From a virus, in IMG/VR virus record IMGVR_UViG_3300034159_000059: a DNA stretch of 64,000 bases; one strand, given 5' to 3'. Below are positions 5,446 to 56,477 of the stretch, piece by piece. The notes under the pieces were generated by a model. The model saw only the letters and a list, made by a program, of their open reading frames with translations, was not told where the DNA came from and searched no databases. Made by a program: the position numbers and the translations under genes. The first letter of the stretch is position 1. Every line of letters begins with the position of its first letter.

Positions 5446-5474
5446 GAAAAGAATCTCCACTACAGGGAATAAGA
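5446..5474 (+). promoter_or_regulatory. Candidate promoter: GAAAAG-N17-ATAAGA
   Basis: Exact bipartite motif 45 nt upstream of the 5520 start; the same motif recurs at 8209-8237 and 56449-56477. Confidence 0.4.
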
Positions 5475-5519
5475 GAACGAGGTCAAGATGACTCTTCTTT
5501 CACCTCAACGGGAGACCGA

Positions 5520-5927
5520 ATGAATCGATTGGAGTTGACCCAGAAGAAGCGAGAGTCGTTGAAGGACCTCGTGCAGAAGGGACACAGCGACAAGAGGGAG
5601 ATCCAGGAGATCCTCACGAGACGCTTTGGGAGCCCTCTCTCCGACGGCACGTTCTACAAGACGCTGAAGGAACTGCTCGGGCAGCGTGGAGGGCTGCGGC
5701 TCGTCAAGCGGAACCCTGGCCGGTGGAGTCGAATCCCCAAGGCGGGGGGCGTTGTGGAGACAGCGGTCCCCAAGGAGCTCGCCGAGCTCATCGAGCAAGT
5801 CATCCACGCTGCCCAGCGCGTCGGCGTGGACGTGGTCAACATCGACGCCGACAAGAAGAAGTTCAACATCCATCAGAAGGAGAGAGATGTGGAGATCTCT
5901 CTCGATGACGAGAGGCCGGAGGAATGA
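5520..5927 (+). CDS. Putative winged-helix DNA-binding protein
   Basis: Internal ATG with GGGAGA RBS; the ORF track start 5394 overlaps the terminator; SDGTFYKTLKELL…LRLVKR is wHTH-like. Confidence 0.45.
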   Translation: MNRLELTQKKRESLKDLVQKGHSDKREIQEILTRRFGSPLSDGTFYKTLKELLGQRGGLRLVKRNPGRWSRIPKAGGVVETAVPKELAELIEQVIHAAQRVGVDVVNIDADKKKFNIHQKERDVEISLDDERPEE

Positions 5928-6415
5928 AAGCCAAGATCGGAAGTGGGTTGGGTATTGGTGGCATGAAAAGCCACCTCAGAAGGATCGAGATCGAGGGGAT
6001 CGCTGGCCAAGTCTCGTATCTCTCGAAGAACACCATCATCGAAGAGGTGTTCAAGCATCCGAAGAAGTACAGCGCGCTGGCTGCATTGATGAACTCCGTC
6101 ACCATGGAGAGAGCAGTCAAGACTGCGCGGATGATGAAGCTCGGAGCGGCGATCCGCCTCATCCGCCAGAAGATCAAGGGAGACCCCGTCCCCGGCCGTA
6201 GCTATCCCGTCTTCCTCTCTGTCCCTCTCGCCCATGGGAAGTGGGGGCTGAAGCCCGCACAGGAGGTGATGGGGAACGAAGACCTGCGGCTCAAGTACTT
6301 CGATCGGCTTGCGGTCGCAGAGGTTGGGGCCAAGAAGCGAAGGAAGCTGTACGTCGAGTACATCAAGATCGCAGGACACATGGCGGGGCCGACGGCGCAG
6401 TGGAAGAAGACCTGA
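5924..6415 (+). CDS. Hypothetical protein
   Basis: 163-aa ORF coupled by ATGA overlap. Confidence 0.55.
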   Translation: MKAKIGSGLGIGGMKSHLRRIEIEGIAGQVSYLSKNTIIEEVFKHPKKYSALAALMNSVTMERAVKTARMMKLGAAIRLIRQKIKGDPVPGRSYPVFLSVPLAHGKWGLKPAQEVMGNEDLRLKYFDRLAVAEVGAKKRRKLYVEYIKIAGHMAGPTAQWKKT

Positions 6416-6422
6416 TGCAGAG

Positions 6423-6458
6423 AAAGACGAGAGACGTATCCTCTCGTCTTTCTTAGCT
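6423..6458 (+). terminator. Rho-independent terminator (12-bp perfect stem)
   Basis: GAAAGACGAGAG-acgtatc-CTCTCGTCTTTC followed by TTAGCTCT. Confidence 0.7.
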
Positions 6459-6544
6459 CTCACACACTCTCACATGAAGGGGAGCCTACTACTGGCCCAT
6501 CAAGACTTTGCATCTCTCAGACACCGTGTTACCGAGAAGAGGCC

Positions 6545-7429
6545 GTGGCTCTTCTCATCTCTTCTACTGAACTTCCTGAGCATTGGTACAACCGAGTCGC
6601 TACCTCGATCGAGCGCCTTCACTGGAAGGTGACATCGGTGGTGGCTGTATCTTTGGTAGTCGTCGTCGCATCTACCGACGCGGCTATCGATCGGCTTGCC
6701 GGCTCCGACATCAACCTCGTCTTGCTGTACCTCGTGCCTGTAGCCTTTGGCGCCTGGACAGGAAGAGCACGAATGGGCTGGGTCATCTCAACACTCAGCG
6801 CTCTCAGCGCCGTAGGTCCACACCTCATATCCTCTCCAGAGCAATCTCTCGCGCTCAGCCTGAACATGGGCGTCGATATGCTCGTCTTCCTCTCCATCAG
6901 CTACGTGCTACCAGGCCTACGCAGCCTCCTAGAACACGAGAAACTGGTCTCTCGCACAGATCATCTCACAGGGGTTGCTAACTCCAGAGCGCTTCGAGAG
7001 AGGGCTTTGCGAGAGATACTGCGAGCACGCAAGCACGGGTACGAGCTGTCGGTTGCGTATCTAGACGTAGACGATTTCAAAGCCATCAACGATAAGCACG
7101 GGCATGCAGGAGGCGATCGCATCCTCAAGCTCATCAGCTCTATCACTCGACAAGCTCTACGCTCCACAGACATGGTTGCGAGAGTAGGAGGAGATGAGTT
7201 CGCTCTACTCCTACCAAACACAGGAGCTGCGGCTGCGAAGCGCGTCGTGGAGAGAGTCCGTTCTGAGGTGTATCGAGCATCCCAGGCCGCTGGGGTAGAG
7301 GTGACGCTAAGCATCGGAGTGAAGACCTTTGCTGATATCCCATTGAGCGTAGAAGAACTCGTCGAGTCCGTGGATCTTCTCATGTACTCCGTGAAGAGAG
7401 ACCGGAAGGACGACGTCGTCTACGCCTGA
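6545..7429 (+). CDS. Membrane-anchored GGDEF-domain diguanylate cyclase
   Basis: About 4 N-terminal TM helices followed by a canonical GGDEF domain: DHLTGVANSRAL…YLDVDDFKAINDKHGHAGGD…RVGGDEFALLLP (intact GGDEF active site). GTG start after GAGAAGAGG. Confidence 0.8.
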   Translation: MALLISSTELPEHWYNRVATSIERLHWKVTSVVAVSLVVVVASTDAAIDRLAGSDINLVLLYLVPVAFGAWTGRARMGWVISTLSALSAVGPHLISSPEQSLALSLNMGVDMLVFLSISYVLPGLRSLLEHEKLVSRTDHLTGVANSRALRERALREILRARKHGYELSVAYLDVDDFKAINDKHGHAGGDRILKLISSITRQALRSTDMVARVGGDEFALLLPNTGAAAAKRVVERVRSEVYRASQAAGVEVTLSIGVKTFADIPLSVEELVESVDLLMYSVKRDRKDDVVYA

Positions 7430-7510
7430 AGAGCTCCTGCAAACCGACCAGTTCCTGCGGAATAAGAAACTGAAGCGACCGGTAGTATCGCTCTTCTCTC
7501 AGGAGGTCTC

Positions 7511-7609
7511 ATGCTGGGATTCGCAGGCTTCGCCGTCTTCTTCCTCGTCATCGCTGGTCTCTGTGACAAGGCACGAAAGAAGAGGATCGAGAAAGACAAG
7601 AAGAAGTGA
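7511..7609 (+). CDS. 32-aa hydrophobic peptide (MLGFAGFAVFFLVIAGLCDKARKKRIEKDKKK)
   Basis: Perfect AGGAGG RBS 6 nt upstream; one TM segment plus a basic tail; not in the ORF track (too short). Confidence 0.35.
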   Translation: MLGFAGFAVFFLVIAGLCDKARKKRIEKDKKK

Positions 7610-7692
7610 AAGAGAGACATAAGAACGTAGAGGAGCATTGAGCTTGGGTTCCCTTCGGACCTCCCAAACCCCAAAGCTTGCGCACTCCGGCG

Positions 7693-7728
7693 GTAGGTGT
7701 CCCTCCTGACACCTACCGCTGTTTTCTT
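7693..7728 (+). terminator. Rho-independent terminator
   Basis: GGTAGGTGT-ccctcctg-ACACCTACC followed by GCTGTTTTCTT. Confidence 0.7.
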
Positions 7729-7745
7729 AGCACTTGGAGCACGAC

Positions 7746-8204
7746 ATGATGATCGAGACAGCAGTCGAAGAGGCGAAGAACGAGTGCGTCGTCTTCCTAG
7801 GCCTACAACACGTGCCTGGTACAACGCAGGAGGTAGTGGCGGCCTTGGGGCCAGTGCTCAAGGCTTTGAAGAAGGTCATCGTTACCTCTCATTTTCTCAC
7901 CGGAAGGAAGGGCGAGGATCGGAGAGGAGTAGTGGTGTATGAGGCAGAGGGGGTAGAGCCTCAGAACGATGCCTTCAAGCTGATGCGAAAGCTAGTCTTC
8001 ACGCCGGAAGGCTCGCTCGTAATGGAAGACGTGCTCACGTGTCAGAACGAGTGTCATGTGTATGCGGTGCATGCACGAGAAGTAGAGCTAGAAGTAGTGC
8101 TTCAAGAGGGAGTGACGCCTCGACAGCTCGTTGAAACCATCAAGGAATTCCTATGTGACCCAGACGAGGCTGTCATGGGACCAACTCTCGGCATGATCCA
8201 CTGA
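7746..8204 (+). CDS. Hypothetical protein
   Basis: ATG 6 nt after GGAG; the ORF track TTG start at 7734 overlaps the RBS. Confidence 0.55.
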   Translation: MMIETAVEEAKNECVVFLGLQHVPGTTQEVVAALGPVLKALKKVIVTSHFLTGRKGEDRRGVVVYEAEGVEPQNDAFKLMRKLVFTPEGSLVMEDVLTCQNECHVYAVHAREVELEVVLQEGVTPRQLVETIKEFLCDPDEAVMGPTLGMIH

Positions 8205-8208
8205 GTCA

Positions 8209-8237
8209 GAAAAGCCGTTACGTCTTGAGTGATAAGA
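8209..8237 (+). promoter_or_regulatory. Candidate promoter: GAAAAG-N17-ATAAGA
   Basis: Exact bipartite motif 53 nt upstream of GTG 8290. Confidence 0.4.
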
Positions 8238-8289
8238 AGGGTGTGGAGAGGGGAATGGTTCTTCTCTCTTTCGCTGTGAGGAGGCGAAG

Positions 8290-8775
8290 GTGACCGTTGC
8301 GCTCGTAGAGGGAGACGACGTGGAGACGGGGAATCCGCACGAGAGGTTGTTGAAAGAAGAGATGTTGCGAGCAGAGATCGCTCGGTTGAAGGCCATGACC
8401 GCGTTGTTCGAGGACATGGGCGCCCTCTTCAAAGGGATGGCAAGTCAAGCAGAAGCAGAAGCTGACGTGGCCATCTGCAAGAAGGAAGAAGTCGAGAGGG
8501 ATAGCAAAGACGTGGATCTGAAGGAGCTCTTGGCGAGCAAGCGCAAGTCGGAGATCGAGCTGGAGATCGCTCGAAATCGAGATCAGGTAAAGCGCATCCA
8601 AGAGCGGACGGAGCAGCACCGACGAGGGCAGCCTCCGAAGAGCCCTTATCGAAAAGATCCAAAGACTTCGGTGCATGCAGACAAGAAGGAGGTGTTGGTG
8701 GACACACAGAGCAGTGCGTCTCTCAAGGGTCCCATTCGAGGACTTGATAAGGTCCCGACGACGGCATCTCCGTGA
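8290..8775 (+). CDS. Coiled-coil hypothetical protein
   Basis: GTG start 4 nt after GAGGAGG; Glu/Lys/Arg-rich heptad-like sequence. Confidence 0.5.
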   Translation: MTVALVEGDDVETGNPHERLLKEEMLRAEIARLKAMTALFEDMGALFKGMASQAEAEADVAICKKEEVERDSKDVDLKELLASKRKSEIELEIARNRDQVKRIQERTEQHRRGQPPKSPYRKDPKTSVHADKKEVLVDTQSSASLKGPIRGLDKVPTTASP

Positions 8776-8783
8776 ACGAGCTC

Positions 8784-8812
8784 GGGCCGCCGAAAGGCGG
8801 CCCGTCTCTTAG
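8784..8812. terminator. Hairpin terminator at the convergent gene boundary
   Basis: GGGCCGCC-gaaa-GGCGGCCC followed by GTCTCTTAGC; lies between the last + gene and the first minus gene. Confidence 0.6.
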
Positions 8813-8830
8813 CTCAAGCTCTTAGCCCGT

Positions 8831-9145: not shown

Positions 9146-9147
9146 GG

Positions 9148-11637: not shown

Positions 11638-11639
11638 GG

Positions 11640-12986: not shown

Positions 12987-12992
12987 GTGTAG

Positions 12993-13637: not shown

Positions 13638-13645
13638 CAGCTACC

Positions 13646-13903: not shown

Positions 13904-13905
13904 GC

Positions 13906-14226: not shown

Positions 14227-14282
14227 GGGTCCTCCACTCCGGTTTGACAGTGCTACGCTGTCATTCTGCCACGTCCAGGCAG

Positions 14283-14359
14283 GTGAAAACCCCTTTCACT
14301 TCATGATACCAAAGCCGGTTTCGGTGCGGTAAACGTCGTGAAGTGAAAGCCCCTTTCAC
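14283..14359. promoter_or_regulatory. Two 17-bp perfect palindromes GTGAAA(A/G)CCCCTTTCAC, 60 bp apart; candidate operator pair
   Basis: 14283-14299 GTGAAAACCCCTTTCAC; 14343-14359 GTGAAAGCCCCTTTCAC; each preceded by (t)cgtgaa / caggcag(g); they sit in the divergent intergenic region upstream of the RHH-like gene. Confidence 0.5.
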
Positions 14360-14416
14360 CCTCGTACCCGGAACGGTGGCATCTTACATCAACTCGTCTT
14401 GAACAGGAGGTTGAGC

Positions 14417-14590
14417 ATGCCGGTAGGGTTCCCTCGCATGGAATTCCATCCCAGTCCGGATACCAGAAGGTACATCGAGAAGCTTCGAGAAGAGCTTTCG
14501 AAGAGCGCCAAGAAGCGAATTACCCTAAGTGAGGTTATCGAAGAGATTCTCCGCATGTACATCGAAAAGGCTGAGCGCGAGAGAGGGTAG
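14417..14590 (+). CDS. Small putative DNA-binding protein (ribbon-helix-helix-like)
   Basis: ATG 6 nt after AGGAGG; KKRITLSEVIEEILRMYIEKAE resembles the RHH/CopG beta-strand plus helix; directly downstream of the palindrome pair. Confidence 0.5.
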   Translation: MPVGFPRMEFHPSPDTRRYIEKLREELSKSAKKRITLSEVIEEILRMYIEKAERERG

Positions 14591-14674
14591 TTCTCAAGAA
14601 GCATCTTGCTTTTTCAGGTCTTGATGCTAAGAGATGCATGAGAAGAAGTTCTTCTCTCAAGAAAGGAAGAAGTC

Positions 14675-15280
14675 ATGCCTCGTGGCATTTACGATCGCAG
14701 TCAGATGAAGCCGAAGGGGACGGCCAAGACCGCCAAGGCGGCCGAGCCCACCACCGGCGGTGGGTCCGCTCTCACCAACTCCCCTCTGAAGAGGAAGTAC
14801 GTGAGGAAGGCCACCACACAAGCTCTCAAGGCTGTCCTCGACTCTCCCAAAGGGTTCGAGGCGTCTGGAACGGCGCCAGAGTCTGACCTCGGTGGCGTGG
14901 TCTTCTCTTCCGTCGGAATGCTCTACACCCATCTCGGTCAGCTCCACTCCGCAAGGGTGCAGCTCTCTCAGCAGAGCATCGACCACAACCCCAAGGTCAT
15001 CGCCGTCATCGACGAAGAGATCATCGCCACGCTCGGCTCTCTGAAGATCTGGAGACAGAACACCTTCAAGACCGAGAGCAAGGAGCCGGAAGCGCAGACC
15101 CAGAGCATCCCGGTGATCCCGCCGGCCCTTGTCGCAGCGGCCCCAGCGCCTGCCCCGGCACCCGCTCCAGCGCCTGCCCCTGCGTTCCAGGGAGCCTCTA
15201 CGATGACTCCGCCCCCCGCACCGCTCCCCTTCTCGCCCCAGACGGTCGAGGAAGTGCGCCGCGCATCCGGCCAGGCGTAA
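14675..15280 (+). CDS. Hypothetical protein with a C-terminal (Ala-Pro)n repeat
   Basis: RBS AAGGAAGAAG; AAAPAPAPAPAPAPAPAPA tract; simple DNA repeat at 15139-15186. Confidence 0.55.
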   Translation: MPRGIYDRSQMKPKGTAKTAKAAEPTTGGGSALTNSPLKRKYVRKATTQALKAVLDSPKGFEASGTAPESDLGGVVFSSVGMLYTHLGQLHSARVQLSQQSIDHNPKVIAVIDEEIIATLGSLKIWRQNTFKTESKEPEAQTQSIPVIPPALVAAAPAPAPAPAPAPAPAFQGASTMTPPPAPLPFSPQTVEEVRRASGQA

Positions 15281-15307
15281 CAAAACCGGCCGAGCAGAGA
15301 CTCGAAG

Positions 15308-15334
15308 GGCCCCGTTTCGGGGCCCTTTTTCTTC
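15308..15334 (+). terminator. Rho-independent terminator
   Basis: GGGCCCCG-ttt-CGGGGCCC followed by TTTTTCTT. Confidence 0.8.
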
Positions 15335-15386
15335 CCACGAGAGGCGTCTTCCTAGAGAATCCCCTTGAAACTGCAAGGGGATCCAC

Positions 15387-15599
15387 ATGGCGCTACGAGG
15401 TACAGTGAAGTGGTTCAACGATGCAAAGGGCTACGGGTTCATCAAGCCTGACGATGGGGGGAAGGACATCTTTGTCCACCACTCCGTCATCAAGATGGAT
15501 GGGTTCCGCACTCTCTCTGAAGGGGAGCGCGTCGAGTACACCATCGAGGCCGGGGCGAAGGGCCCGCAGGCCGTAAACGTCTCTCGCATCTCAGAGTAG
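15387..15599 (+). CDS. cspA: Cold-shock protein (CspA family, S1-like cold-shock domain)
   Basis: [35 protein letters not shown]…[20 protein letters not shown]: canonical CSD with RNP1 (KGYGFI) and RNP2 (VFVHH) motifs. Confidence 0.9.
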
Positions 15600-15614
15600 T
15601 GCTCAAGACAAGGG

Positions 15615-15658
15615 AAGGCCGCGCTCCCGGGGGGAAGAAGCGCGGCCTTCTTGTCGCC
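15615..15658. terminator. Hairpin terminator at the convergent boundary
   Basis: GAAGGCCGCGC-15 nt loop-GCGCGGCCTTC followed by TTGTCGCCC. Confidence 0.6.
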
Positions 15659-15680
15659 CTCCTGCCTCGTGGGGGGAGGG

Positions 15681-17079: not shown

Positions 17080-17108
17080 GACTGTTTCTCCTTACAAGTA
17101 GATCGGGT

Positions 17109-20100
17109 TCAGACCACGAGCGTGAGGCGGATGTAGTTGCAGGGGTACGGGACGTCGAGGGTCACGTCGATCATCACGGTGTCCGGGTTCTCCGGGTCCT
17201 GGATGATGTTGTTGAGCTGCGCTCCGTTGAGGATGCCATTGTCCTTCAGGAACTCCAGCATGCCGGTGATGGTCGTCCCGATGGTGTCGAGGAAGACTGA
17301 GGTGATGTTCTGCCGGCCGATGAAGCGACGGATACCTGCCCGAAGGAACTTGGCGACGAAGTCGACGTCCTTCGTGATCGAGAGCTCTCGCGTCTCGATG
17401 GTCGATGTGTCGGTGGAGAGCTGGTGCCGGCAGAATACCGGTCCGCCCTGCACCTCCTGCATGAGGATGAAGGCACCTCCACCCGCCATCTGATCGAGCT
17501 GCTTCTTGGTGAACTTCTCCGTCCCCACCACCCCGGTGAGGCCGGTCATGGGGTAGTTGGTGAGTCCCTGCTGCGGAGGCAGGCCAGCGATCATGCCTGC
17601 CACGACCGCACAGGCGTAGTAGCCGGGGACTTCCTTCTCCAGACCCGCGACGGTGGTCTTCACCGTATCGGGGAAGAAGGAGTAGGCCCGCCGGTTCGCG
17701 ATGCCAGAGTTCAGCGTCGCGACGGTAGAGGCGACGAGGGAGTAGTCCGGTTTGGCGGGGGAAGAGCCTGCGATCATCAGGCTCGCGCCGCGCACATTCA
17801 TGCTCCAAGCCGCATCGAGGATGTCGGTTGGAAGGGCTACGACCTCGTAGAAGTAGTCGTCGTTCTCTCCGGCCGCGAAGGTGGTACGGAGATTCACGAG
17901 GCCGCCGGTCACCGAGGAGATTGAGTAACGGTAGAAGACGCCGTTCCAGTTGAACTCGATGTAGACGCCATTCGCCACGGTGAAGGGCAGTGACGGATTG
18001 ATTCCGGCATCGACGAGACCAGCTTGAGGCGTGACGTCGACGAGGAGCTGGTCGGCAGTGGCAGTCGAGTTCGCAGAGACGCCACTCACGACCGCCCTTG
18101 GGGCGCGGGTAGTGGGCTGCGTCTTGTTGAAGAGGACGATTCGCTCGCCCATCTCCTCGGGCTGGCTCATCAGCGTGACGTGGGTGTTGAAGAGCTGATG
18201 CACCACATCATTCTGGGTGAGCAGTGCGATGGTGTAGACCTCTTCCGACTCCAAGAAGTCGGCTGCTCTGGCGTAGGCGAGCTCGGTTCCTTCCGGAGCG
18301 GAGCCAGAGATCTCGTCGACCCCGAGGGCACCGACCACGAATCCTGGGCAGTTGAGAAGAGCCAGGTAGGTACCGAAGGCGAGAGGGTTGGCGTCCGTCA
18401 CCGGGTCCATCACCGAGGTGAGGGTGCTGGTGTCTTGGAGATGGACGACTCCCGCGACTGCCGCGGACGCCGAGACATCGCGACGAAGTCCCTTGAACTG
18501 GATGTAGAGAGATGCCGGGCTGGTGGCGAAGTCGAGGGGGTAGCCAGTGACTGGATCGCGGACGAGATCCGGACCGATCACCAGGTTGCTGCTCACATCG
18601 ACGTAGGCGTCAGGATTCGGACGCCCTGTTCCGGCTGTCGCGGTCTGCGCTGCCGTGAAGCCGAGAGCCGTGAGAGCGGTTCCGTCGACGATGTAGACCA
18701 GAGATCCCGCGCCAGCAAGGGTGCTGGTGAGGACGAGGTTCGTCCCCGCTCCGTTCTTCGAAGCGACTGTGCCACCGACGAGCTGGTTGACGGTGTCGAC
18801 GGCGATGTCGAGCGAGGTATCGGTGAAGCCCACATCGTAGACGTGAGCGCCTCGGTCTAGAGAGAATCGGAGGTTCTCTCCAGTGAGCCCAGAGAACGAA
18901 GCGTCGGTTCCGGTACCGCTGGTGTCCGCGCTGGTGGAGTAGCCGAGGACCGTGGCCGCGGAGCTCGTCGCCTTGAAGGTGATGCTCTGAAGCCTTCCCG
19001 TCTTGGCGGTGGCAAGCTTCAGCTTGCCGGAATCGACAGAGGCAACGACGCCCGTGATGCTGACGGCCGCAGCCATTCCGGCGACGGTGGTGACGGGGGT
19101 GGAGCTTGTGAAGGTGAACGTTCCGACTGTCGCGACTCCATCCACCGTGAGGATGTAATCGATCCGGAGACCGGCGAGAGCCACGCCTCCGGACGGATCC
19201 GGGACGGCCCCGCCTTCGACCGAGGCGGCCACTGCTGCGGAAGCCGCAGCCGATCCCGTGACGGTGGACTTGGTTGCCGAAACGGTGGGCGAGAGCCCCG
19301 TTGCCTTGAACCACACGTACTGCGGCGCGAAGGGGGCAGCGTCGATGGGAAGACCGAGAAGAGCGTCGTCGTAGGTCTTCGAGAGGTAGCGGCCTTCCGT
19401 GTCAGCGGTAGAGAGGGCAGCGTCGATGGTGCCCATCCGGAAGCGAGTCGGATCGACGCGAGAGATCTCACCGCTCTTGAGCCGCGTGCCGTCGGCCCAG
19501 ATCTGATCCCCTGCCAGGATCGGGATGCCGTTGGTGCCGAAGGTGATGGCGGCAGAGCGTGCATGCGTCAGCGCGCCTGTGGCGACGTTGATCATGCCGG
19601 CATGAGAGGCCCAGGCCGAGTCTGCCGAAGAGACCCCACCCACGCTGTAGTCGCCACGGAAGAACTCGATCCAGGCGCTCTGTGTGGTGTTGTTCTGGAG
19701 GTTGTATGCACGGTAGCCGGCGCCGCACACCCTCTCTTCGGTTCCGACAGAGCCGACGGAGTTCCAGCCGATGCCGAGAAGAGCATTCGCCGTCCCACCC
19801 GCGCGCACCGTGATTGAGGAGAGCGCCCCGTAGCTCGGAGAGGAGAGACGGACGCCTGTGACGGAATCCCCCGACACAGTGACCGAAGCGATCGCCATCC
19901 CAAAGGCGTTGTTGATGACGGTGACGATGTCGGCCGGCGCGTAAGGAGACGAGCCCGGAAACGGGATGGTCACGTCTTGCGTGGTGTTGGCCGTAGTCGG
20001 CTGGTCGATGGCGAGAACGAGGTTCTGCCCACCGATGGAGAAGCTGGTTCCGACGATGTCGAGGACCGCCTTGGACGCCACATGGCTTGCGACCAGGAAG

Positions 20101-20426
20101 CCTTCTCCAGGATTCATCAGGAGCTCAGCGAGCCGACCTCCTGTGTAGAGGAAGGGACGGATCGAAGCCGTCTGGATGTCGACCTCGTCGATGTTGCCTC
20201 GCGGGTTCGGGAAAGACGAATGGGTGATCGTCTTTCCGAGCTGCGCGTAAGCACCGTACTTCGCCTTCGAGTTGATGGTTCCATCGGAGGTGAGGACGTT
20301 GATGACCTCGAAGGCCGCACCGACGATGACCGGCGCGAGCGTCGGCGTGAGGAACGTCGGCGACGTCTTGCGCGCGGTCTGAATGACATCGACGCCTGGC
20401 CGGGCGATCTCAGCAGTGGCGGCCAT
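17109..20426 (-). CDS. Tail sheath protein (1105 aa, with large insertion domains)
   Basis: N-terminus MAATAEIARPGVDVIQT… and C-terminus …QGGPVFCRHQLSTDTS…YIRLTLVV match the conserved sheath terminal domains; the long Thr/Ser/Gly/Ala middle is consistent with extra insertion domains. Confidence 0.8.
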   Translation of the reverse strand: MAATAEIARPGVDVIQTARKTSPTFLTPTLAPVIVGAAFEVINVLTSDGTINSKAKYGAYAQLGKTITHSSFPNPRGNIDEVDIQTASIRPFLYTGGRLAELLMNPGEGFLVASHVASKAVLDIVGTSFSIGGQNLVLAIDQPTTANTTQDVTIPFPGSSPYAPADIVTVINNAFGMAIASVTVSGDSVTGVRLSSPSYGALSSITVRAGGTANALLGIGWNSVGSVGTEERVCGAGYRAYNLQNNTTQSAWIEFFRGDYSVGGVSSADSAWASHAGMINVATGALTHARSAAITFGTNGIPILAGDQIWADGTRLKSGEISRVDPTRFRMGTIDAALSTADTEGRYLSKTYDDALLGLPIDAAPFAPQYVWFKATGLSPTVSATKSTVTGSAAASAAVAASVEGGAVPDPSGGVALAGLRIDYILTVDGVATVGTFTFTSSTPVTTVAGMAAAVSITGVVASVDSGKLKLATAKTGRLQSITFKATSSAATVLGYSTSADTSGTGTDASFSGLTGENLRFSLDRGAHVYDVGFTDTSLDIAVDTVNQLVGGTVASKNGAGTNLVLTSTLAGAGSLVYIVDGTALTALGFTAAQTATAGTGRPNPDAYVDVSSNLVIGPDLVRDPVTGYPLDFATSPASLYIQFKGLRRDVSASAAVAGVVHLQDTSTLTSVMDPVTDANPLAFGTYLALLNCPGFVVGALGVDEISGSAPEGTELAYARAADFLESEEVYTIALLTQNDVVHQLFNTHVTLMSQPEEMGERIVLFNKTQPTTRAPRAVVSGVSANSTATADQLLVDVTPQAGLVDAGINPSLPFTVANGVYIEFNWNGVFYRYSISSVTGGLVNLRTTFAAGENDDYFYEVVALPTDILDAAWSMNVRGASLMIAGSSPAKPDYSLVASTVATLNSGIANRRAYSFFPDTVKTTVAGLEKEVPGYYACAVVAGMIAGLPPQQGLTNYPMTGLTGVVGTEKFTKKQLDQMAGGGAFILMQEVQGGPVFCRHQLSTDTSTIETRELSITKDVDFVAKFLRAGIRRFIGRQNITSVFLDTIGTTITGMLEFLKDNGILNGAQLNNIIQDPENPDTVMIDVTLDVPYPCNYIRLTLVV

Positions 20427-39730: not shown

Positions 39731-39797
39731 GCTCTGAAGGGATAAGAAGAAGAGGCGGAATTATTCGCCTCCTATTCCTTGGAGGTCTATCTCAACC

Positions 39798-40265: not shown

Positions 40266-40306
40266 AGAAGGTCGGGCTTCCACACCCGACCTTCTTCCCT
40301 TTTAGG
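40266..40306 (+). terminator. Rho-independent terminator closing the + island
   Basis: AGAAGGTCGGG-cttccacac-CCCGACCTTCT followed by TCCCTTTTAGG; overlaps the terminase stop. Confidence 0.7.
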
Positions 40307-42188
40307 TATCTTCCGGCGCTGCGTAGTTGGTCTTCTGCGTCGGGTTCAGCACGTCATGGCGTGGATTCCGAATCATCGAGGCGAGGAAGCAGAAGAGGAT
40401 GGCGTGGAACGAGTCGTCCGTCATGTCCGGCGCGTGCTTGTACTGCACCTGACGCTGCGTCTCGTTGTACTCGCTGAAGATGTTCAGCATGTCCTTCGCG
40501 AACGGATCTTCGAACTGAGCAAAGTCCGGGAAGCGGAAGACGTCTAGACGCTTGATGGCGCTGAAGATGTCGCTCATCACCTCTGTGCGATGGACGAGGT
40601 AGCGACGCAAACCATCTTCCCAACGCACCTTCTGGCTGGGCTGGGAGTACTGGTACTTCACGATTCTGCGAGAGCCGAAGGTGCGGGCGAGCTGATCGTT
40701 CGGGTAGTGGCCACCACCGTAGTCAACTCCGACGAGCTGCACGTTCCAGTACTTGATGAGCTTGCTGATGAGGTCGATCTGGGCCGAAGGTTCTACCTCT
40801 GGGCCCTCAAAGCGGTGGATGTAGAAGATGTTGAAGAAACCATGAATGTAGGCGCCTAGCGCGATGACGGAGTACGAACCTTCGCCAGTACCCCAGTCGA
40901 TTCCCGCGTAGACCGGAGAGATGTCTCCGAGAGCTGCTTTGATGGCATGAAGACCATCCTGGTCCATGTACTGACCAGGGACGCAGTTGTCGATGATGTT
41001 CTTGCGCGTGAGGGGACGCGAACCAGAGTCGTAAGAAAGCCCCAATACCTCGTTGTAGAAAGTGGCGCGCGGGAACTTGACGTACTTGTCTAGGATCTCA
41101 GACCAAGGGATCCAGGGCACCATGAGCTGCGGGATCCGATACCCCTCGTAGAACTCCTTCAACTTCTGCTTCACGCCCTCATTCATCGAAGCCCACTGCG
41201 CCATCGGGTGCATGGGATCGATACGCTGTTTGCACTTGGAACAAATCGGACCATCCTGCCCAGGGTCGATGTTGTCCTCAGTGAGGATGTTCCAGAACCA
41301 GCTCGACGGGTTGTTGGGAGTGCCGTGCCGATCGCAGGGCACCACCCACTCATTCTGCGTTGAGAAGTTCTGCCAGTAGTGCTCGATGGTGTTGTCAGTG
41401 CTCTTCGGCGTGCCGGAGTAGAGGAAGAGCTTGTAGTGCGAGTGGGACGCGCACTCTTCGATGACGGGGATGTTGTCGGTGATGACATCCTGGATCTCGT
41501 CTACCAGGATGAGATCAGCCGGGATGCCTCTGGTACGGTCGGCGTTGTGGTAGGCGTATCGAAGCGTGATCTTCGAACGGTTGATGAACTGCTTCTCAAA
41601 GACGTTGTCGGAGAGCTTTGAGGTAGTCCAGGCCTTCAAGATCTCCGACGTCTCGATGGGCTCCTTGAGACGGTCCGCCGAGAACTTCTTCGTCTGCTGG
41701 TTCGTCGGAGAGACGTAGAGAACGTTGAAGGCGTTGACGATGCAGCAGTAGGCGAGACACTTGTTCCCGAGCAGCGTCGACTTCTCGACCTGGCGCCCGC
41801 ATTTGTAGAGAGTGCGACGTGCTGGCGTGTCGTAAGGAAGACGGAGGTACCGTCTTCCGTCGAAGCTGAAAGGGACGTGTTTCTGAAGCTCCTTGTTCGG
41901 AACCCGGATGGCGAACTCGACAAACTGAGAAGGAGGCACTCCGATGAGTTGAGCTTGTCTCTGCTGAAGCTCGCTCTCGTCCAGGAACCCTTCTTCGACC
42001 TCGGAGCGGTAGTCCCACTCTTCGCGGAGCTCAGGATACCCGCTCTCGGAGATGACGACGTCCGAGTCTAGGCGTAGGTACTCATCATATGGAAGGGTCA
42101 GCATCCGACAGGAGTCCTCATCATGGCGCCCCCAGGTCTTGCCTGGCTCAACTCGTTCTCGATCTCGACTGGAGCTGCACTCGACCAA
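40302..42188 (-). CDS. terL: Terminase large subunit
   Basis: 628 aa; ATPase Walker B-like …LILVDEIQDV… and a C-terminal nuclease region GIDWGTGEGSYSVIALGAY typical of large terminases. Confidence 0.9.
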   Translation of the reverse strand: MVECSSSRDRERVEPGKTWGRHDEDSCRMLTLPYDEYLRLDSDVVISESGYPELREEWDYRSEVEEGFLDESELQQRQAQLIGVPPSQFVEFAIRVPNKELQKHVPFSFDGRRYLRLPYDTPARRTLYKCGRQVEKSTLLGNKCLAYCCIVNAFNVLYVSPTNQQTKKFSADRLKEPIETSEILKAWTTSKLSDNVFEKQFINRSKITLRYAYHNADRTRGIPADLILVDEIQDVITDNIPVIEECASHSHYKLFLYSGTPKSTDNTIEHYWQNFSTQNEWVVPCDRHGTPNNPSSWFWNILTEDNIDPGQDGPICSKCKQRIDPMHPMAQWASMNEGVKQKLKEFYEGYRIPQLMVPWIPWSEILDKYVKFPRATFYNEVLGLSYDSGSRPLTRKNIIDNCVPGQYMDQDGLHAIKAALGDISPVYAGIDWGTGEGSYSVIALGAYIHGFFNIFYIHRFEGPEVEPSAQIDLISKLIKYWNVQLVGVDYGGGHYPNDQLARTFGSRRIVKYQYSQPSQKVRWEDGLRRYLVHRTEVMSDIFSAIKRLDVFRFPDFAQFEDPFAKDMLNIFSEYNETQRQVQYKHAPDMTDDSFHAILFCFLASMIRNPRHDVLNPTQKTNYAAPEDT

Positions 42189-42266
42189 GGCATCGTGGCA
42201 GAAGTCTACTCCACTGTAAATCCGTTAGTGTACACGGTTCGCGTCCGGTGGCCAGAGTCCATCTCC

Positions 42267-42458
42267 ATGAAGAATGCAGTCATGGTATGGAATCTGCTAC
42301 AGAAATGGGCGGCTGCAAACAAGACAACTCCAGATGGGCGAGTGGACTTCGTTCAAGAAATCATCACCACTACAAGAGAAGTCCGCATCCGAGGCTTCTC
42401 CGTAGACATCCACATTCGTGAGCGACTCGGGCATCCAAAGAACGAGTACCCGAAGTGA
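42267..42458 (+). CDS. Small hypothetical protein
   Basis: Internal ATG of ORF 42123..42458, chosen to avoid overlap with the terminase start. Confidence 0.3.
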   Translation: MKNAVMVWNLLQKWAAANKTTPDGRVDFVQEIITTTREVRIRGFSVDIHIRERLGHPKNEYPK

Positions 42459-42481
42459 TAAGAAGTGAAGGAGGATTTTTC

Positions 42482-43712: not shown

Positions 43713-43952
43713 ATGCTCGTGCTGGTGAAGTGCCACTGCTGTGATGTCCCCTTCCACTTCCCACAAGAGGTCCTCGCCCGGATGAAGGTTCCGTCGACCT
43801 TCTGCGAGCGCTGTTTCAACAGCTTCGACGCACTCACCCTTCGAAAGTGGTTCGTGGTCGACATTCTCCATCGACAGGTTCAGGAACTCTCCCGAACCAT
43901 CGAACAGGTGTTGGGTGGTCTTGTGAACCAAACGCCGACAGCGCTTGGGTAG
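43713..43952 (+). CDS. Cys-rich small protein (zinc-ribbon-like)
   Basis: KCHCCD…FCERCF cysteine pairs. Confidence 0.45.
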   Translation: MLVLVKCHCCDVPFHFPQEVLARMKVPSTFCERCFNSFDALTLRKWFVVDILHRQVQELSRTIEQVLGGLVNQTPTALG

Positions 43953-43957
43953 AGAGA

Positions 43958-43990
43958 AGGCCGGACAGAGAGTCCGGCCTTCTCTTTTTA
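43958..43990 (+). terminator. Rho-independent terminator
   Basis: AGGCCGGAC-agaga-GTCCGGCCT followed by TCTCTTTTTA. Confidence 0.75.
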
Positions 43991-45553: not shown

Positions 45554-45556
45554 AGA

Positions 45557-46420: not shown

Positions 46421-46422
46421 GA

Positions 46423-48930: not shown

Positions 48931-48939
48931 CTTCTTCTC

Positions 48940-50013: not shown

Positions 50014-53000
50014 TTAGTAGGCGAACGGCTTCTTGCGAGTGACTTCCTTCGGAGGAGCCCCGAACTCCTTGCCGTAGGCGATTCCAGGAATGGGGTGAGC
50101 GCCGTGGATGTCGCTCTTCCACGCCTGACTGGCCCCTCGCTGAAGGGTCTGCTTGAGGCGCTGGTAGTTGAGGCGAGCCATCCAGTCGGTAGACTGGTTG
50201 GGGATGTTTCCAGAGCCAGGAAGCATGGGCTCGTGTGTGATTGGCTGCTCGTGCGTCTTGCCTTTGTTGTTGCGGTTGAACTCCTCCACCAAGGAGTGCG
50301 GAACTACGTCTCCTGGATCCCACTGAGAGCTGCCAGGGTCCTTGATCCGAGTGTAGTTGGTGAGGCTTCGAACCACGAGCTCGATGTTACGTGGCCGGAC
50401 GTTTTCGTCCTTGTAGAGCTTCCTGTAGAGCTCGTCGACCAGGTGGCGCTGCACCCCATGCATGTCCTTGGTGATGTGGAGGAGCTCCTTCGGGTGAATC
50501 GGAGCCATCTCATGAGACAAGCTCTCGCCTCGACGCACCTCCGCTCCAACCACAAGAGCAGGGTTGATTTCTCCTTCTCGAATGTGGTGGTCGATCCCGT
50601 TGATGGTAACGACGTGGCCACCAAGACCGGGGTCTGGCTTGATGCCTGTGACGGTTCCTGTGGTCTTGGCAAGAATGGCTGACCCCTTCAAGATCTTCGG
50701 CATCTTGAGTAGGTCCTTCAGTCGTTGAATCCTGGAGACGGAACCACCTCCACGGCCCGACGCGATACCTCCGGTGTGGAAGGCATCCATGGCGAGCTGA
50801 GTCGCGGGCTCGCCCAAAGCTTGTCCAGCGAGGACGCCGATGTTGGTCCCCACCGGATGGAGCTTCCCATTCTCATTGAGGCCGAAACACTTAGAGCAGA
50901 CACCTTCTCCGTGCTGGCACTTGAGAGGGGAGCGGACTTGGATCTTGGCGTCCTTCCCAAGAACCTGACGCAGGCGATCTACGAGAGCAGGAGTGACCTG
51001 TTCCCCCGCCTTGAAAGGCCCGTGGTCCTTGGCCAAGAACCGATCGTAGACGTCGAGATGGTAGGGATCCTTGGGGTCGAGAGGCATCAGGATGCCGTGC
51101 TGCGTTCCACAGTCCTCGCTCGTGATGAGCGTCGAGATTGTGGAGTTGATGATGTCCTTCGTCATCGCGCCAGGCTCTCTCGTACCGCTGGCGCGCTGGA
51201 GAGTTCCCTTGCGGGCGCCGTGCTGGGCGAGCCAGTAGTCTCCGACGTCGAGCCCCTCTCCGTAGGACCTGGTGATGGGGAAGGGAACCACGCGGCCCGT
51301 AGAATCCTGCACAAGCATCGGGGCTGCGATCATCTGTCGAAGCTGCTCTGGTTTTCCACGCGCACCGGAGTAGACCATGGCGCCGAGGTGGCTACCTTCT
51401 TTTGGCAGCCGCACTCTCGCTGCGGCGTCGAGCTTCTCCGTTGCCTTGGAGAAGATCTCCACCAGCTTCGCCTCCCTCTCCCATGAATGAAGAGACGGGT
51501 CGATCTTTGCTGCTTGATGCTGCGCCTCCGCTACGATCTGGTCGCGCTCAGGCAGAGGAGCAAAGTCCTTCAGACTGAGAGAGAACCCGTGCTTGAAGGA
51601 CTGCTCAGTACCCAGATCCTTCAGGTTGTTCACCACCTTGTCGAACTCTCCAGGATGCTTCTTGGCGAGCTCGGTGACAATGGAGCCCATTGGCTTCTTG
51701 GAGATCTCGAACTCGGGGTCGTAAAGCACTTGCCCCCGCATCGCGAAATCCCGAGGAAGGCGGGATTCGATCCGTAGACGGCCAAGCGTAGTAGGCCGGT
51801 TCCCGACTTGTTCGACTCGGACTACATCTGTGTGAGTCAGGAGTCCTTTGTCGACCAGGTCTGAGAGCTCATCGACGGTCTTCACGGTCTTGCCGGAATC
51901 CTTACCCCATTTGGAGATGAGGTGAAGGCCGAGCAGGAACTCCTGGGAAGGGATGTGCATCGCGCCGTAGGTCGTGGGAGAGAAGAGGTTCCGTGAAGGG
52001 AACATCTTCTTCGCCTCTTCCACCGCTTCTTGGGAAATAGGGACGGTGCCCGCCATCGTATCGCCGTCGAAGTCGGCGTTGAAGCCGCCACAGACCAGCG
52101 GGTGGATCTTGATGGCCTTGCCTTCCACCGTCTTGGGGCGGAACGCTTGAACCGAGAACTTGTGCAGAGCCGGATCTCTTTTGAGAAGAAGGGGTCGATC
52201 CTTCATCACCTCGTCGAGAGCCTTCTTGGCATGATCCGACTGTGCCTTCATCTCGGACATAGCTTGAGAAGGCGTGTATCCGTAGCGCGAGTGCATATGC
52301 GCCACGACGAAGGGCTTGTAGAGCTCCATCGCGGCCACACGGGGAAGCCCGATCTCGTCGATGTGAAGGGAAGGTTCAGGGACGATGGTGGACCGAATTG
52401 ACAGGTCCTGCTTCCGCTTGACGAGCTTCTCTTGGAAGTACCCCTCCTTCGGCTGATCTCCACCGATGAGGTCCACAATACCCTTCAGCTCTCGGTTGTC
52501 GAAGCTCTCCTTGTCGTAGATGGGTGTGTAGTCTCCGACAGCCTGTAGAGCCTTCATGCTGTTCCAGAGCTCGCCGCGGAGCTCGTGGACCATCTCATGC
52601 CCATACTTCTCCGCAGGCATGACCTTCATCTTCTCATTCACAAGACCCACGGTCTTGTAGAGGTCGTTGAGAGAGCTCTTCGCCACATCACCGCGTGCCG
52701 TGGGAGTCACTGGACGGAAAGCAGCCGGCAGGACCGGGATGTTTTGAAGCACGTAGGCCTCGTGCGGCTTCATGTCGAGGTCCTTCAGTGCCAGAAGGTA
52801 CTTGAGCGTGCGGTTGCTCTGGTCGCGCTTCGAGCCTCTCTTCGTAGGAAGCTCCTCCCGCAGCTTCTTGATCTCCTCTTCGACGTTGACGCTCTTCAGA
52901 GCGTCTGCGATGGCTCGACCCCCCACCTTCCCGTCGAGGGTGCTCTGCCCTGACATGATCTTGTCCACTTCCTGGACGGAGATGTCGCCATGCTTGAGGG

Positions 53001-56000
53001 AGAGAAGAGACGGGATGGGGCCCTTGTTCTGCTTGTCTCCGACAAAGAGCGGATTCGGCACCGGCTCATGGAGCTTGATGTAGCTCCACTTCTCGCCGCG
53101 GGACCCGACGATAGCAGGATCGAACAGACCGCCCTTCTCAGGCTTGAAACCCTTGGAGGTGAAGAGCAGAGGTTTGCGGATCTCGTTCTTACCGTTGTCA
53201 GCGATCTTCAGGACCTCGCGATCCGTCATAGGCACCAGCCGCATCGAGGTGCCTTCCTTGCGAACATCAACGCCGAGGCCGCGAAGCAGTCCTTCGAATT
53301 TGGTGTATGCGAAGGGGATCTTCGGAGGAGGCGGCTCTCGTCCTTCTTGAATCATCCGCCAGAAGTCGACGCCCTGCATGTCTGCTTTGTAGGTCGTCAT
53401 CTCCCGAAGGTTGTGACGCGCGTTGTGTCCGAGGAGAGAGTAGAGCTCAAGGGAGCCGAAACCCTGGCCACCAGAAGCCCCGCCCTTCACTGGCTGCATG
53501 TCCTGATCGTATTTGTACGGGCGATCGGAGAGGTCCGAACCTCCTCCGCGCACTACCAGCTTCTTCTCGACCTGGTGCTTCAGCTTGAGAAGGTGTTGAG
53601 GGCCGACGAGGATCTTGCCCAGAGGGCGTCGACGATCAGATGGGTCGAAGACTTCCTCTTCGTCAGACAAGCCATGCTTCGCAAGCTCGTCCACCACCTG
53701 CTTGCGATAGTCGTGTCCTGATCCAGCGAAGTTGTTCACGAAGAAGGGGGAGCCGGTCTTCTCTGCCACTTTACCGGCAGCAGTCTCCAAGACCTGCCCG
53801 ATGTTCATACGAGTAGGCACGCCTGATGGGTTCAGGAGCACATCAAGAGGACGGTCTGTCCCATCCGGCTTCTTCACGAAGGGCATCTCGTGGTCCGGAA
53901 GGATCTTGGTGATGATGCCCTTGTTGCCGTGGCGTCCGGAGAGCTTGTCGCCGATCTCAGCAGCTTCCTCGGTCTTCACGAAGACCTTCACGCTCTTGCC
54001 GTTCGGACTCTTCACAACTCGCGTGACGATGCCCGGGTAGTCACTGTCCCAGGTGAGAGACTTGTCCTTCCATGGCTTGATAGCCTTGTTGCCGAATCTC
54101 TCGACCATGATCTGACTCTTCACCTTGTTGGGAGTCAGACACGTAGCGAGAACCTGCCCGTTCGTTACCCTAGAGCCCTCCTTGATGACGCCATCGTCAT
54201 CCAACATGGAGAGCTTATCTTTCGAGTGGCTCGTCGCCTTGTGTGAGGCGTAGGACATCCACTTCTTCTTTGAAGTAACGTCCTCTTCCGGCGCCACATC
54301 CATCTTCAGCTTGTGCAAATGCTCGCTGGTGAGCTTCTGAGAAGCCGACTCAGAGATGACGATACCGTCTTCGAAGTTGTACCCTTTGTAGGGAATGTAG
54401 CCGACGTGGAGGTTCGTCCCTAGGGCCAGAGTGCCGTTTCGAGTGAAGTTCGAGTCGGCCACCACCTGCCCAGCCTTCACCTGGTCCCCGACCTTCACCA
54501 CCGGCTGGGAGTGCAGCATGGTAGTCGGATCATTCAGCGGGAAATGGTTGTAGAGCTGAACCTTGTGCTCAGTCTTGCCGTCGTGGACGTGGACCCCGTC
54601 CGCAGTGATCTTCGTCACCTTGCCATCCACAGGAGCTCTGTGGGCCGCGAAACTCGTGCCGATGAGCTTCTCGAAGGAGTGGGTTGGGTTGTCCGACCGC
54701 ACCAGGCTCTGCACGAGAGGGGCTTCACGGTTCTTCAGCGAGATGGCCTGTTCCATCTGCTTGTCGGCCATCGAAGCGCGGTTGCCTTGGTCGCAAGGAA
54801 GGAAGGGGATGAGGTTCGATGTGTAGCTGAACATCGCCTTCGCCGTTGGCATGAGGAAGTCTGCCTCATGGTAGGGGCGCCGACTGATGTCCCCACCAGG
54901 CAACTTCACCTTCACTTCTCTGGCGATGGGAACGTACTTGCCGTCGACCTTCTTCACCTGATCAGGCAGCACCACCATGGCCGTGTGGAACTCGGGAACA
55001 GTGACATCCTTGAGCTTCCCGGTCTTGAGATCCACGACGGTGGTGCTGAGGCTCCGACCCTCCTTGCGAACACCAGAACCGAGGTGGAGCGTGATGCCTG
55101 TACGCTCAGACTCTGGGGTATGCATCGGATCGAGGAAGGCGAAGTGAGAAGGGTTCACCCCCTGCATCTCCTCACCGACCTTCTCGGGGTCCTTGATACC
55201 ACCGTAGTCCTTGGCGATGACGGTAGTCTTGAAGTTCCCTGAGAGCATCTGTACTGGGTTCGTCTGCTCACTGCGTTCGGAGACGTTGCCGCCTTGGGTG
55301 AAGAATTCCTTGATGGGACGGTTGAAGAGATCTCCGCCCTGCATGATCTCGGAGATGACGTTCTTTCGTCCGATGGAGAGCAGGACCTTGTTCTTCACTC
55401 TCTTCTTGAAGTTGTTCTTGTCGAGCTTCTCTGGAATGAAGTCCTCGACGTGAACGACTTCCTTGAAGATCAGGCTGTCACGATCATCAGGCTCTACCTC
55501 GCGCCGCTCCAACTTGAGCAGCTTGTTCGATGCAGCGAGAAGAGCTCCTCCGGTCACCTTCTCGAACGGGTGCCCGAGTGTGGCTTTGGTGGTATCTGGG
55601 AAGAGCTGCGTATCGTCGAAGTAGCGGAAGATGTGCTCCCGCATCTCTTCCATGGACGGAGCTCGCCCGATGTCTGGCGGGGCGGTCTTCTCCCAGAACT
55701 TCCGAAGAGCTCGTTCCTCTGCCTCTGGCTGAGCGACCTTGTTGGCTTCGAAGACGGCTTTGCCCCAGGACTTCTCCATCTCGGCATCGTCTACTCCCAT
55801 CACCTTGAGAAGGGGGTATGCTGGGATCTTCGCATCCCCCGACTTGGTCTTGAAGTTGATGAGACTCTTCTTGCGATCGAGGAGTAGGTCGAAGTTCTTC
55901 GACCCGCCCTTGCGCAAGTTGAATTCAGAAACCAGGTCTCCGTTGCGCTTCACGCGCGTGTAGATGCCGGACTTGAGGCGAAGAAGGTGGTCGACTTGAT

Positions 56001-56325
56001 ACTCACCCCCGTCCACGATGAACGAGTAGCGAGAGGTGAGCTTGGGGACCCGAGCGAGTTGGATGGTCGACTTGGAGATGGGCTTGCCCGTGATGTTGTC
56101 GATCAGCTCCATCTCCGCCCGGATCGGCACACCCCAAGTCTGTTCGTTGTGCTTGGCTTGGAGCTGCGAAGCGACATCGTTCGGATCGAGAGTATCTTCC
56201 GCCCAGATTCTCTTGAGCGACAGAGTTCTCTGACTCGTCTGGATGGGGAAGATGCTGGAAATCTGCTGGATGACGCCATTGGTGAGGGTCGTCATCTTGT
56301 CGGCGGTCTTAGGCTCACCGGCCAC
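50014..56325 (-). CDS. rpoBC: Single-polypeptide bacterial-type multisubunit RNA polymerase: beta (RpoB-like) fused to beta' (RpoC-like), 2103 aa
   Basis: Beta signatures [12 protein letters not shown] and [22 protein letters not shown]…[17 protein letters not shown]; beta' catalytic motif [24 protein letters not shown]; the beta' N-terminal Zn-finger region appears absent; GTG start with GGAG RBS (alternative ATG at 56295). Confidence 0.9.
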   Translation of the reverse strand: [2103 protein letters not shown]

Positions 56326-56448
56326 GGGTGCTCCAGTTGCACCTCGCGCTGGGTGCTATATCTGTCAGCCCTCTCTCTGCGCGTCTAGAGGTCTTCGGGC
56401 CGTATCGACTCGATGCGAGGATACAAGCACGGCCCACAGCATGGCAAC

Positions 56449-56477
56449 GAAAAGGCTCGAAGATCCAAGGCATAAGA
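56449..56477 (+). promoter_or_regulatory. Candidate promoter: GAAAAG-N17-ATAAGA
   Basis: Third exact copy of the bipartite motif, at the head of the + island 56533-58213. Confidence 0.4.

Follow-up and report, generated by a model that had tools for sequence, protein, structure and literature searches.

What reads the promoter-like element that recurs along one strand of a large uncultivated phage? The DNA considered here is a 64,000-nucleotide stretch of IMG/VR record IMGVR_UViG_3300034159_000059 (hereafter the window), and the element, which we call the class A motif, is a two-box sequence initially annotated as GAAAAG-N17-ATAAGA in front of plus-strand gene units. Judged from its genes, the source is a myovirus-like phage of ~200 kb. 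The gene for a fused beta-beta' multisubunit RNA polymerase (RNAP) lies on the minus strand between the portal and baseplate-spike genes. Below, we describe the strand bias, position and conservation that make class A a well-supported candidate promoter of the non-structural genes, and we weigh the enzymes that may recognize it.

Strand, position and conservation of the class A motif

In the window (GC content ~58%), the exact arrangement GAAAAG-N17-ATAAGA occurs three times (5446-5474, 8209-8237 and 56449-56477), on the plus strand only, and none of 100 dinucleotide shuffles contains a match. The initial annotation had judged such a recurrence improbable by chance, and the shuffles, with zero expected copies, bear this out. 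Its six sites, exact copies and near variants together, were all correctly placed, and they are precisely the set retrieved by the looser pattern AAAG-N15-19-ATAAGA, again on the plus strand only (0.13 expected). ATAAGA by itself is not enriched (11 copies versus 8.8 expected), so that it is the combination of the two boxes that carries the signal. With the register fixed as AA-N16-G-NN-ATAAGA, all eight matches fall on the plus strand, against 0.07 expected; they comprise the six sites and two additional ones, at 7441-7467 and 7598-7624, which the initial annotation did not list. These sites score 20-31 bits with a position weight matrix (PWM) for the phage family. Because the inter-box spacers differ among sites, the sites are not copies of a repeat element. 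ATAAGA ends 18 to 55 nt upstream of the next start codon, the exception being 7598-7624, where a strong terminator intervenes before the next gene.

The same bias extends beyond the window. The readable part of the ~200-kb genome amounts to 82.7 kb, made up of the window (part of a 109-kb Logan contig) and fetched flanking DNA. Over this length, G[GAT]nATAAG[AGT] is found 13 times, in every case on the plus strand, in non-coding DNA and upstream of a plus-strand start; likewise, 13 sites, all on the plus strand, reach a PWM score of at least 13, against a background that does not exceed 10.2. DNA nearly identical to the window was not found in the phage collection, and the relatives used for comparison are 19 IMG/VR loci encoding polymerases 33-70% identical to that of the source phage. 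At nearly all of these loci, the motif sits in the divergent spacer adjoining the polymerase gene and is directed away from it, and at the position corresponding to 56449-56477 both boxes are kept in 15 relatives. An alignment of this spacer from 16 genomes, whose RNAPs are 41-70% identical, leaves only one A of the -35 box, the G at position -3 (relative to ATAAG) and ATAAG itself invariant. The source phage and 15 relatives together provide 455 kb of non-redundant sequence (16 genomes), in which the fixed-register motif occurs 47 times, compared with 1.85 in a first-order Markov resample. The polymerase and virion genes occupy one strand and all 47 copies the other, the non-structural strand; 46 of the copies are intergenic, though intergenic DNA accounts for 13.6% of the total. 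The initial annotation had proposed a search of this kind, beyond the window and on both strands, and had named equal frequency inside genes or in the reverse orientation as the outcome that would speak against a promoter; the counts of 47/47 on one strand and 46/47 between genes are the opposite of such an outcome.

The columns that carry the motif were assessed in 49 sites, chosen by ATAAGR, strand and intergenic position only, after six evident non-members had been removed by hand. In columns that were not used in the selection, counted from the first A of ATAAG, G is present at -3 in 48 of the 49 sites and at -2 in 44, and A is present at -21 in 44 and at -20 in 46. The family consensus is g(C/A)AA(A/G)-N15-GGnATAAG(A/G), or cAAr-N15-GGnATAAGr in short form. 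The upstream box was thus rightly distinguished from TTGACA in the initial annotation; it is better written as cAAr, with AA at -32/-31, than as GAAAAG, and the G three bases before ATAAG also belongs to the element.

Strand bias, position, conservation and the presence of a phage RNAP gene together give good support to a bipartite, promoter-like element that is distinct from plain sigma-70 promoters, as had been proposed. Class A sites either follow intrinsic-terminator-like hairpins (1227-1258, 5405-5428) or open divergent units, at 56449 and at 64417, just outside the window, where the flanking DNA downstream carries a helicase-UDG-DnaB-primase operon. At 42458, only the Shine-Dalgarno sequence (AGGAGG) fits between ATAAGA and the ATG, and ATAAGA is therefore the most downstream promoter element, a -10-like box; in six relatives, the sites orthologous to this one (42435-42463) are separated from the start by 25-26 nt. 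If ATAAG is numbered as in sigma-28 promoters, its first A would be the flipped A(-11), with G and G at -14/-13, a G in place of the sigma-70 T(-7), and the AA of the upstream box at -32/-31. The register shared with sigma-28 promoters therefore predicts a transcription start ~11 nt downstream of the leading A in ATAAG, or 5-7 nt after ATAAGA, in agreement with the earlier estimate. As for sigma-70 itself, TTG is absent from the upstream box in all 49 aligned sites, and the -10-like box departs from TATAAT: A(-11) is present, and the T(-7) position is taken by an invariant G (49 of 49 sites and the 16-genome alignment). A consensus scan of the early block for canonical sigma-70 promoters returns a single match against 4.0 expected, a depletion.

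Candidate readers of the motif

The polymerase gene encodes Rpb2_6 (Pfam E = 1.3e-63) and Rpb1 domains 1, 2, 3 and 5 in one chain that is ~29% identical to bacterial enzymes. Its beta' part aligns without a break to positions 166-514 of bacterial beta', a segment that includes the clamp helices on which sigma region 2 docks and the NADFDGD catalytic motif. A JGI contig of 209 kb carries an identical polymerase. The homologues number at least 441; many are encoded on contigs 195-220 kb in length, and several are 2400-3400 aa long and carry intein/homing-endonuclease domains (PF14528, PF05204, PF14890).

A second class of putative promoters, class B, is sigma-70-like and located on the opposite strand, before the polymerase and portal operons. 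The sequence tcgTTGCCA-N18-TAyvCTcgc occurs only twice in the 82.7 kb, once before each of these operons (56418-56447 for the polymerase), and the pair is kept at syntenic places in relatives as TTGaCc-N18-TAyyCT or TACACT. An independent sigma-70 scan also detects 56418-56447. Another candidate, GTAYYYT, was rejected as a general late promoter, its only intergenic copy being the one that precedes the RNAP gene. The RNAP leader, from the class B promoter to the start codon, contains a small two-tier hairpin (GGCCCGAAGACCTC...GAGAGGGC; 56369-56399, minus strand) that is conserved in 11 genomes, with compensatory changes in five of seven pairs, and that may act as a leader element regulating the polymerase operon.

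Further evidence comes from two distant isolates. The Salmonella phage Arash shares its RNAP, portal, terminase, capsid, sheath, tube and other structural genes with the source phage. In 166 of its 181 kb (OQ632216.1; L023, L024, L028, L029), the non-structural strand carries 29 copies of GGTATAAG and the other strand one, and each copy is found 20-45 nt upstream of a start codon and followed by aaaGTGTAA (GGTATAAGT-aaaGTGTAA). The Vibrio phage D181 (L030) has the same arrangement, GTTATAAGT-aatatGTAA, with a TT(A/C)AA(C/T) box ~16 nt upstream. The ATAAG core (GGTATAAGT, GTTATAAGT) thereby marks the non-structural strand in both. Since the same core is present in phages of Salmonella and Vibrio and in uncultivated relatives with GC contents of 50-65%, it follows the polymerase lineage and not the host. 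The promoter-like boxes of Arash and D181 are not mentioned in their papers and records, and the Arash paper (PMC10585845) does not discuss promoters. It does report mass spectrometry of the Arash virion, in which polymerase beta is the most abundant protein and beta' and the sigma factor Gp10 are also detected (PMC10585845). Two sigma genes are present in Arash, gp10 and the RpoD-like gp196; in D181, the ~48 kb examined contain one. Gp10, as well as a sigma encoded 7 kb from the polymerase in the outgroup L020, scores best against FliA and WhiG models, below the curated cut-offs.

The motif is observed together with its conservation and its bias in strand and position, as are the polymerase gene and a second class of promoters; from these we infer a reader and an order of events. 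Class A is probably the early and replication-gene promoter of the phage's own system, recognized by phage-specified machinery and not by the host sigma-70 holoenzyme. The likeliest reader would be the fused beta-beta' polymerase together with a sigma-family specificity factor. If Arash is a guide to timing, the polymerase would be delivered with the DNA and class A would fire first; class B would control transcription of the polymerase and portal operons, and Arash gp196 may serve as a model for how class B is read. A broader proposal, which we offer tentatively and regard as possible, is that throughout the clade of single-polypeptide RNAPs a virion-delivered enzyme with a sigma-family factor reads a sigma-28-like two-box promoter of all non-structural genes, after which a sigma-70-like class takes over the virion genes.

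Several findings weigh against this assignment. Searches of the source phage covered 82.7 kb, roughly half of its genome. No sigma-family gene was found by a Pfam scan of the window proteins, some of them concatenated; in the open reading frames (ORFs) of the 82.7 kb or in all loci by phmmer and hmmsearch with RpoD, FliA, Arash gp10/gp196, D181 and L020 sigmas; within +/-10 kb of the RNAP gene in 19 relatives; in ~60 kb more of two relatives; or in ~40 kb followed along a 71%-identical relative. When every conserved gene cluster was compared with a sigma alignment by hhalign, all probabilities were at most 1.3%. A sigma-alignment scan of viral contigs returned nothing for the phage family, and a sigma profile search of a large protein database gave no match on contigs sized like family members. 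A 79-aa helix-turn-helix (HTH) protein (57177-57416) that by eye resembles sigma region 4 was set aside, as Pfam gives it weak CII/HTH_28 matches only. The polymerase gene present here fits the phage-specified factor or RNAP that the initial annotation envisaged; these searches did not find a factor that would recognize the motif. Moreover, Arash is distant (~30% RNAP identity) and without a clear -35 box, and packaging of the polymerase in the virion is shown for Arash only. That a sigma-70-like promoter precedes the polymerase gene fits equally well with a T7-like order, in which the host enzyme acts before the phage enzyme. Finally, the resemblance to sigma-28 promoters is partial: of the -10 sequence GCCGATAA, ATAA is kept, but GGn stands for GCCG, with G in 48 of 49 and 44 of 49 sites at the two C positions.

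Bipartite -35/-10 boxes at fixed spacing are typical of sigma-family recognition in general, and many large phages redirect the host polymerase with sigmas of their own (PMC7824862). Host core polymerase carrying a phage-encoded sigma, in the manner of SPO1 gp28 or T4 gp55, might accordingly read class A and leave the phage beta-beta' enzyme to read class B or an unrecognized late class. We consider this unlikely but a serious rival, with the sigmas encoded by the distant Arash, D181 and outgroup L020 in its favor. The accessible half of the genome (82.7 kb) yielded no such sigma, the lineage retains a complete bacterial-type polymerase with its clamp helices, and class B resembles common sigma-70 promoters, for which a special enzyme is not required. 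In Arash, a sigma is packaged along with the phage polymerase, which suggests joint action.

An unmodified host holoenzyme, with either a primary sigma of unusual consensus or an alternative sigma such as FliA, is a decidedly improbable reader. A(-11) is present, the spacing suits sigma-70-family enzymes, and AAr...ATAA is in register with sigma-28 promoters, but TTGACA is absent, an invariant G occupies the T(-7) position, and GGn stands where the sigma-28 box has GCCG/CGA, a part essential in E. coli (aer206 mutant). The ATAAG core also tracks the phage lineage across Salmonella, Vibrio and the relatives of 50-65% GC, and the same genomes possess a separate sigma-70-like class. Least probable of all is a role other than that of a promoter, in which the motif would be bound by a phage regulator or act at the RNA level, as a processing site or leader element. 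Genes for small HTH proteins are close by (39041-39730, HTH_17; 57177-57416, weakly CII-like) and the motif is always in untranslated DNA near start codons, but its two asymmetric boxes, neither palindromic nor direct repeats, fit a sigma-type reader better than a dimeric regulator, it follows terminators, it opens units in divergent spacers (56449, 64417) where no upstream same-strand transcript is expected, it leaves no space for another promoter before the Shine-Dalgarno sequence at 42458, and the folding of the downstream leaders is not consistently stable.

Transcription units and neighboring genes

Genes were called with a custom codon-usage gene caller and profile searches, and the features that bear on transcription are collected in Table 1. 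Most copies of the motif fall within a long plus-strand block of early-type genes (1-8775) and its extension outside the window. The plus strand as a whole carries blocks of small genes and encodes a GGDEF protein, a cold-shock protein, an HTH protein and RNase HII, and the minus strand carries many virion-type genes beyond those listed.

Table 1. Candidate promoters, terminators and landmark genes of the window; distances are from the end of ATAAGA to the start codon.
Feature	Position	Strand	Context
Intrinsic-terminator-like hairpin	1227-1258	+	Ends the unit 5' of the first class A site
Class A site gAAAG-N18-GatATAAGA	1280-1306	+	After terminator 1227-1258; 48 nt 5' of GTG 1355; PWM 22.8
Class A site GAAAAG-N17-ATAAGA	5446-5474	+	After terminator 5405-5428; 45 nt 5' of ATG 5520; PWM 20.0
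Class A site cAAAC-N17-ATAAGA	7441-7467	+	43 nt 5' of 32-codon ORF 7511-7609; PWM 24.3
Class A site cAAGA...GacATAAGA	7598-7624	+	Followed by a structured stretch of ~100 nt, then terminator 7688-7721; PWM 25.3
Class A site GAAAAG-N17-ATAAGA	8209-8237	+	52 nt 5' of GTG 8290
Tail sheath gene	17109-20426	-	
Class A site CAAAAG-N16-ATAAGA	39720-39747	+	Overlaps the stop of HTH_17 gene 39041-39730; 50 nt 5' of ATG 39798; PWM 28.9
Large terminase gene	40302-42104	-	
Weaker class B-like candidate TGGCCA-N16-TACACT	42227-42254	-	Upstream of the large terminase gene
Class A site CCAAAG-N17-ATAAGA	42435-42463	+	Inside the 3' end of conserved gene 42123-42458; 18 nt (with AGGAGG) to ATG 42482
Fused beta-beta' multisubunit RNAP gene	50014-56325	-	2103 aa; candidate reader of the class A motif
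Class B candidate TTGCCA-N18-TATCCT	56418-56447	-	RNAP operon; -35 box back-to-back with the class A -35 box (TGGCAACGAAAAG)
Class A site GAAAAG-N17-ATAAGA	56449-56477	+	Opens the unit divergent from the RNAP gene; 55 nt 5' of 56533-56667; PWM 31.1
Portal gene	58263-60368	-	
Similar terminators	5405-5428, 7688-7721, 40266-40295, 43952-43989, 58226-58255	+	

The initial annotation had also drawn at least four plus-strand islands nested within the minus-strand virion module and delimited by the motif and terminators. The four islands are real, as are their terminators, but only that at 56449 begins with the motif. In the islands at 39041 and 42123, the motif extends into the 3' end of gene one and precedes gene two; gene 42123-42458 is conserved in 10 genomes and hence real. 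The island at 14283-15658 has no class A copy, its best PWM match being at background level. Within its 448-bp divergent spacer are two 17-bp palindromes of the form GTGAAA(A/G)CCCCTTTCAC (14283-14299 and 14343-14359), 60 bp apart, a pair expected 0.19 times with three mismatches allowed. Beside them, a plus-strand ORF (14417-14590) encodes a 57-aa protein that resembles a ribbon-helix-helix repressor, and palindromes and ORF look like an operator-repressor pair for this island without the class A motif. The same island harbors the cold-shock gene (15405-15599), which with its leader matches the Rfam cspA thermoregulator (15316-15653, plus strand; 84.1 bits against a gathering score of 78). 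The best matches of the cold-shock gene are 60-71% identical and scattered over many phyla, and they point to no one host.

The plus-strand terminator hairpins end in a T-tract followed by TAGC (TYTTAGC; 1257, 6451, 7725, 8807, 8820, 43986, 58252). This tail was rejected as a signal: a bias in strand (nine of ten copies on the plus strand) and in position can be seen, but the total of 10, compared with 7.0 in shuffles, is not above chance. Downstream of the class A site at 7598-7624, the plus-strand segment 7627-7732 folds far better than its shuffles (-42.8 kcal/mol, z = -3.94), and this site may drive a short RNA or an attenuating leader upstream of the gene at 7746. A 5' hairpin was rejected as a general feature of class A leaders, for which z-scores range from +1.4 to -2.6. 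Also among the early-type genes is one for a GGDEF diguanylate cyclase with an N-terminal membrane domain (6545-7429, plus strand; Pfam E = 1.4e-33).

The first gene after the class A site divergent from the RNAP gene (56533-56667, plus strand) encodes a small, very acidic protein (MSTKPNSTEFEEEV...). Its orthologues in L002-L017 keep the position and composition and share the motif (E/Q)MWEEE...AL.G, and the protein may be a DNA mimic or a host-directed factor. In the virion module, all-against-all BLAST identifies two pairs of large paralogous minus-strand proteins, 9148-10785/22433-23803 and 25202-26683/26680-28125.

Comparison with known promoter systems

Sigma-70 promoters (TTGACA-N17-TATAAT) resemble class A in their two boxes ~16-17 bp apart, in the A at -11 and in a location 20-60 nt 5' of start codons. 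Class A differs in having cAAr for TTGACA, an invariant G at -7 and GG at -14/-13, and the true sigma-70-like sites are on the other strand. The T4 late promoter, which depends on gp55/gp33 and whose consensus we take to be TATAAATA, differs from the Arash form TATAAGTA at one of eight positions. The family described here has instead nATAAGr with a conserved upstream box and GG, whereas the T4 promoter lacks a -35 element and serves late rather than early genes.

Promoters of the sigma-28 group (FliA/WhiG, group 3) are also bipartite, with the consensus TAAAGTTT-n11-GCCGATAA (PMC2859248). In the P. aeruginosa fliC promoter, GCCGATAA occupies -15 to -8 and TCTAAAG occupies -36 to -30, and A(-11) is flipped out (PMC12784957). 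When the two are aligned on ATAA (-11 to -8), the AAr of class A falls on the AAG (-32 to -30) of TAAAG, and FliA/WhiG models are the best-scoring ones for the sigmas that accompany the Arash and L020 polymerases. Class A is set apart by the invariant G after ATAA and by C/A in place of the T of TAAAG. In addition, a sigma was not found in the 82.7 kb of the source phage, and the genes predicted to be under class A control are phage early and replication genes rather than flagellar ones.

With the early promoters of the phiKZ and AR9 virion RNAPs, class A shares a phage-specific, non-sigma-70 motif before non-structural genes, confined to one strand class of genes, and a beta/beta'-type polymerase encoded inside the virion gene module; in the relative Arash, the enzyme is likewise found in the virion. 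The differences lie in the enzyme and in the element. Here, beta and beta' form one 2103-aa polypeptide instead of four or five fragments, the enzyme is nearer to bacterial ones (~29% identity, clamp helices retained), and the promoter is a two-box, sigma-like element and not a single AT-rich or uracil-dependent one. Reviews describe the phiKZ and AR9 enzymes as being without a sigma homologue (PMC7824862, PMC13282480).

Phage-specific promoters read by phage polymerases are known, and neither this consensus nor this polymerase lineage is described in the literature searched; a search for the motif strings returned nothing relevant, primers only. The lineage, with its fused beta-beta' gene, spans hundreds of metagenomic genomes, with the isolates Arash and D181 at its fringe. 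For this large group of uncultivated ~200-kb phages, the motif gives a transcription map of unit starts, strand logic and two promoter classes, and it links a bacterial-type phage polymerase to a sigma-like two-box promoter in a testable way. Arash offers a cultivable system in which to test whether the virion polymerase and Gp10 read GGTATAAGT sites, and an orthogonal polymerase-promoter pair could serve as a tool. According to two reviews, known phage multisubunit polymerases are fragmented and without sigma homologues, and the jumbo phages that bear sigmas are without polymerases (PMC7824862, PMC13282480). A sigma-dependent virion RNAP, if the proposal is true, would contradict this picture.

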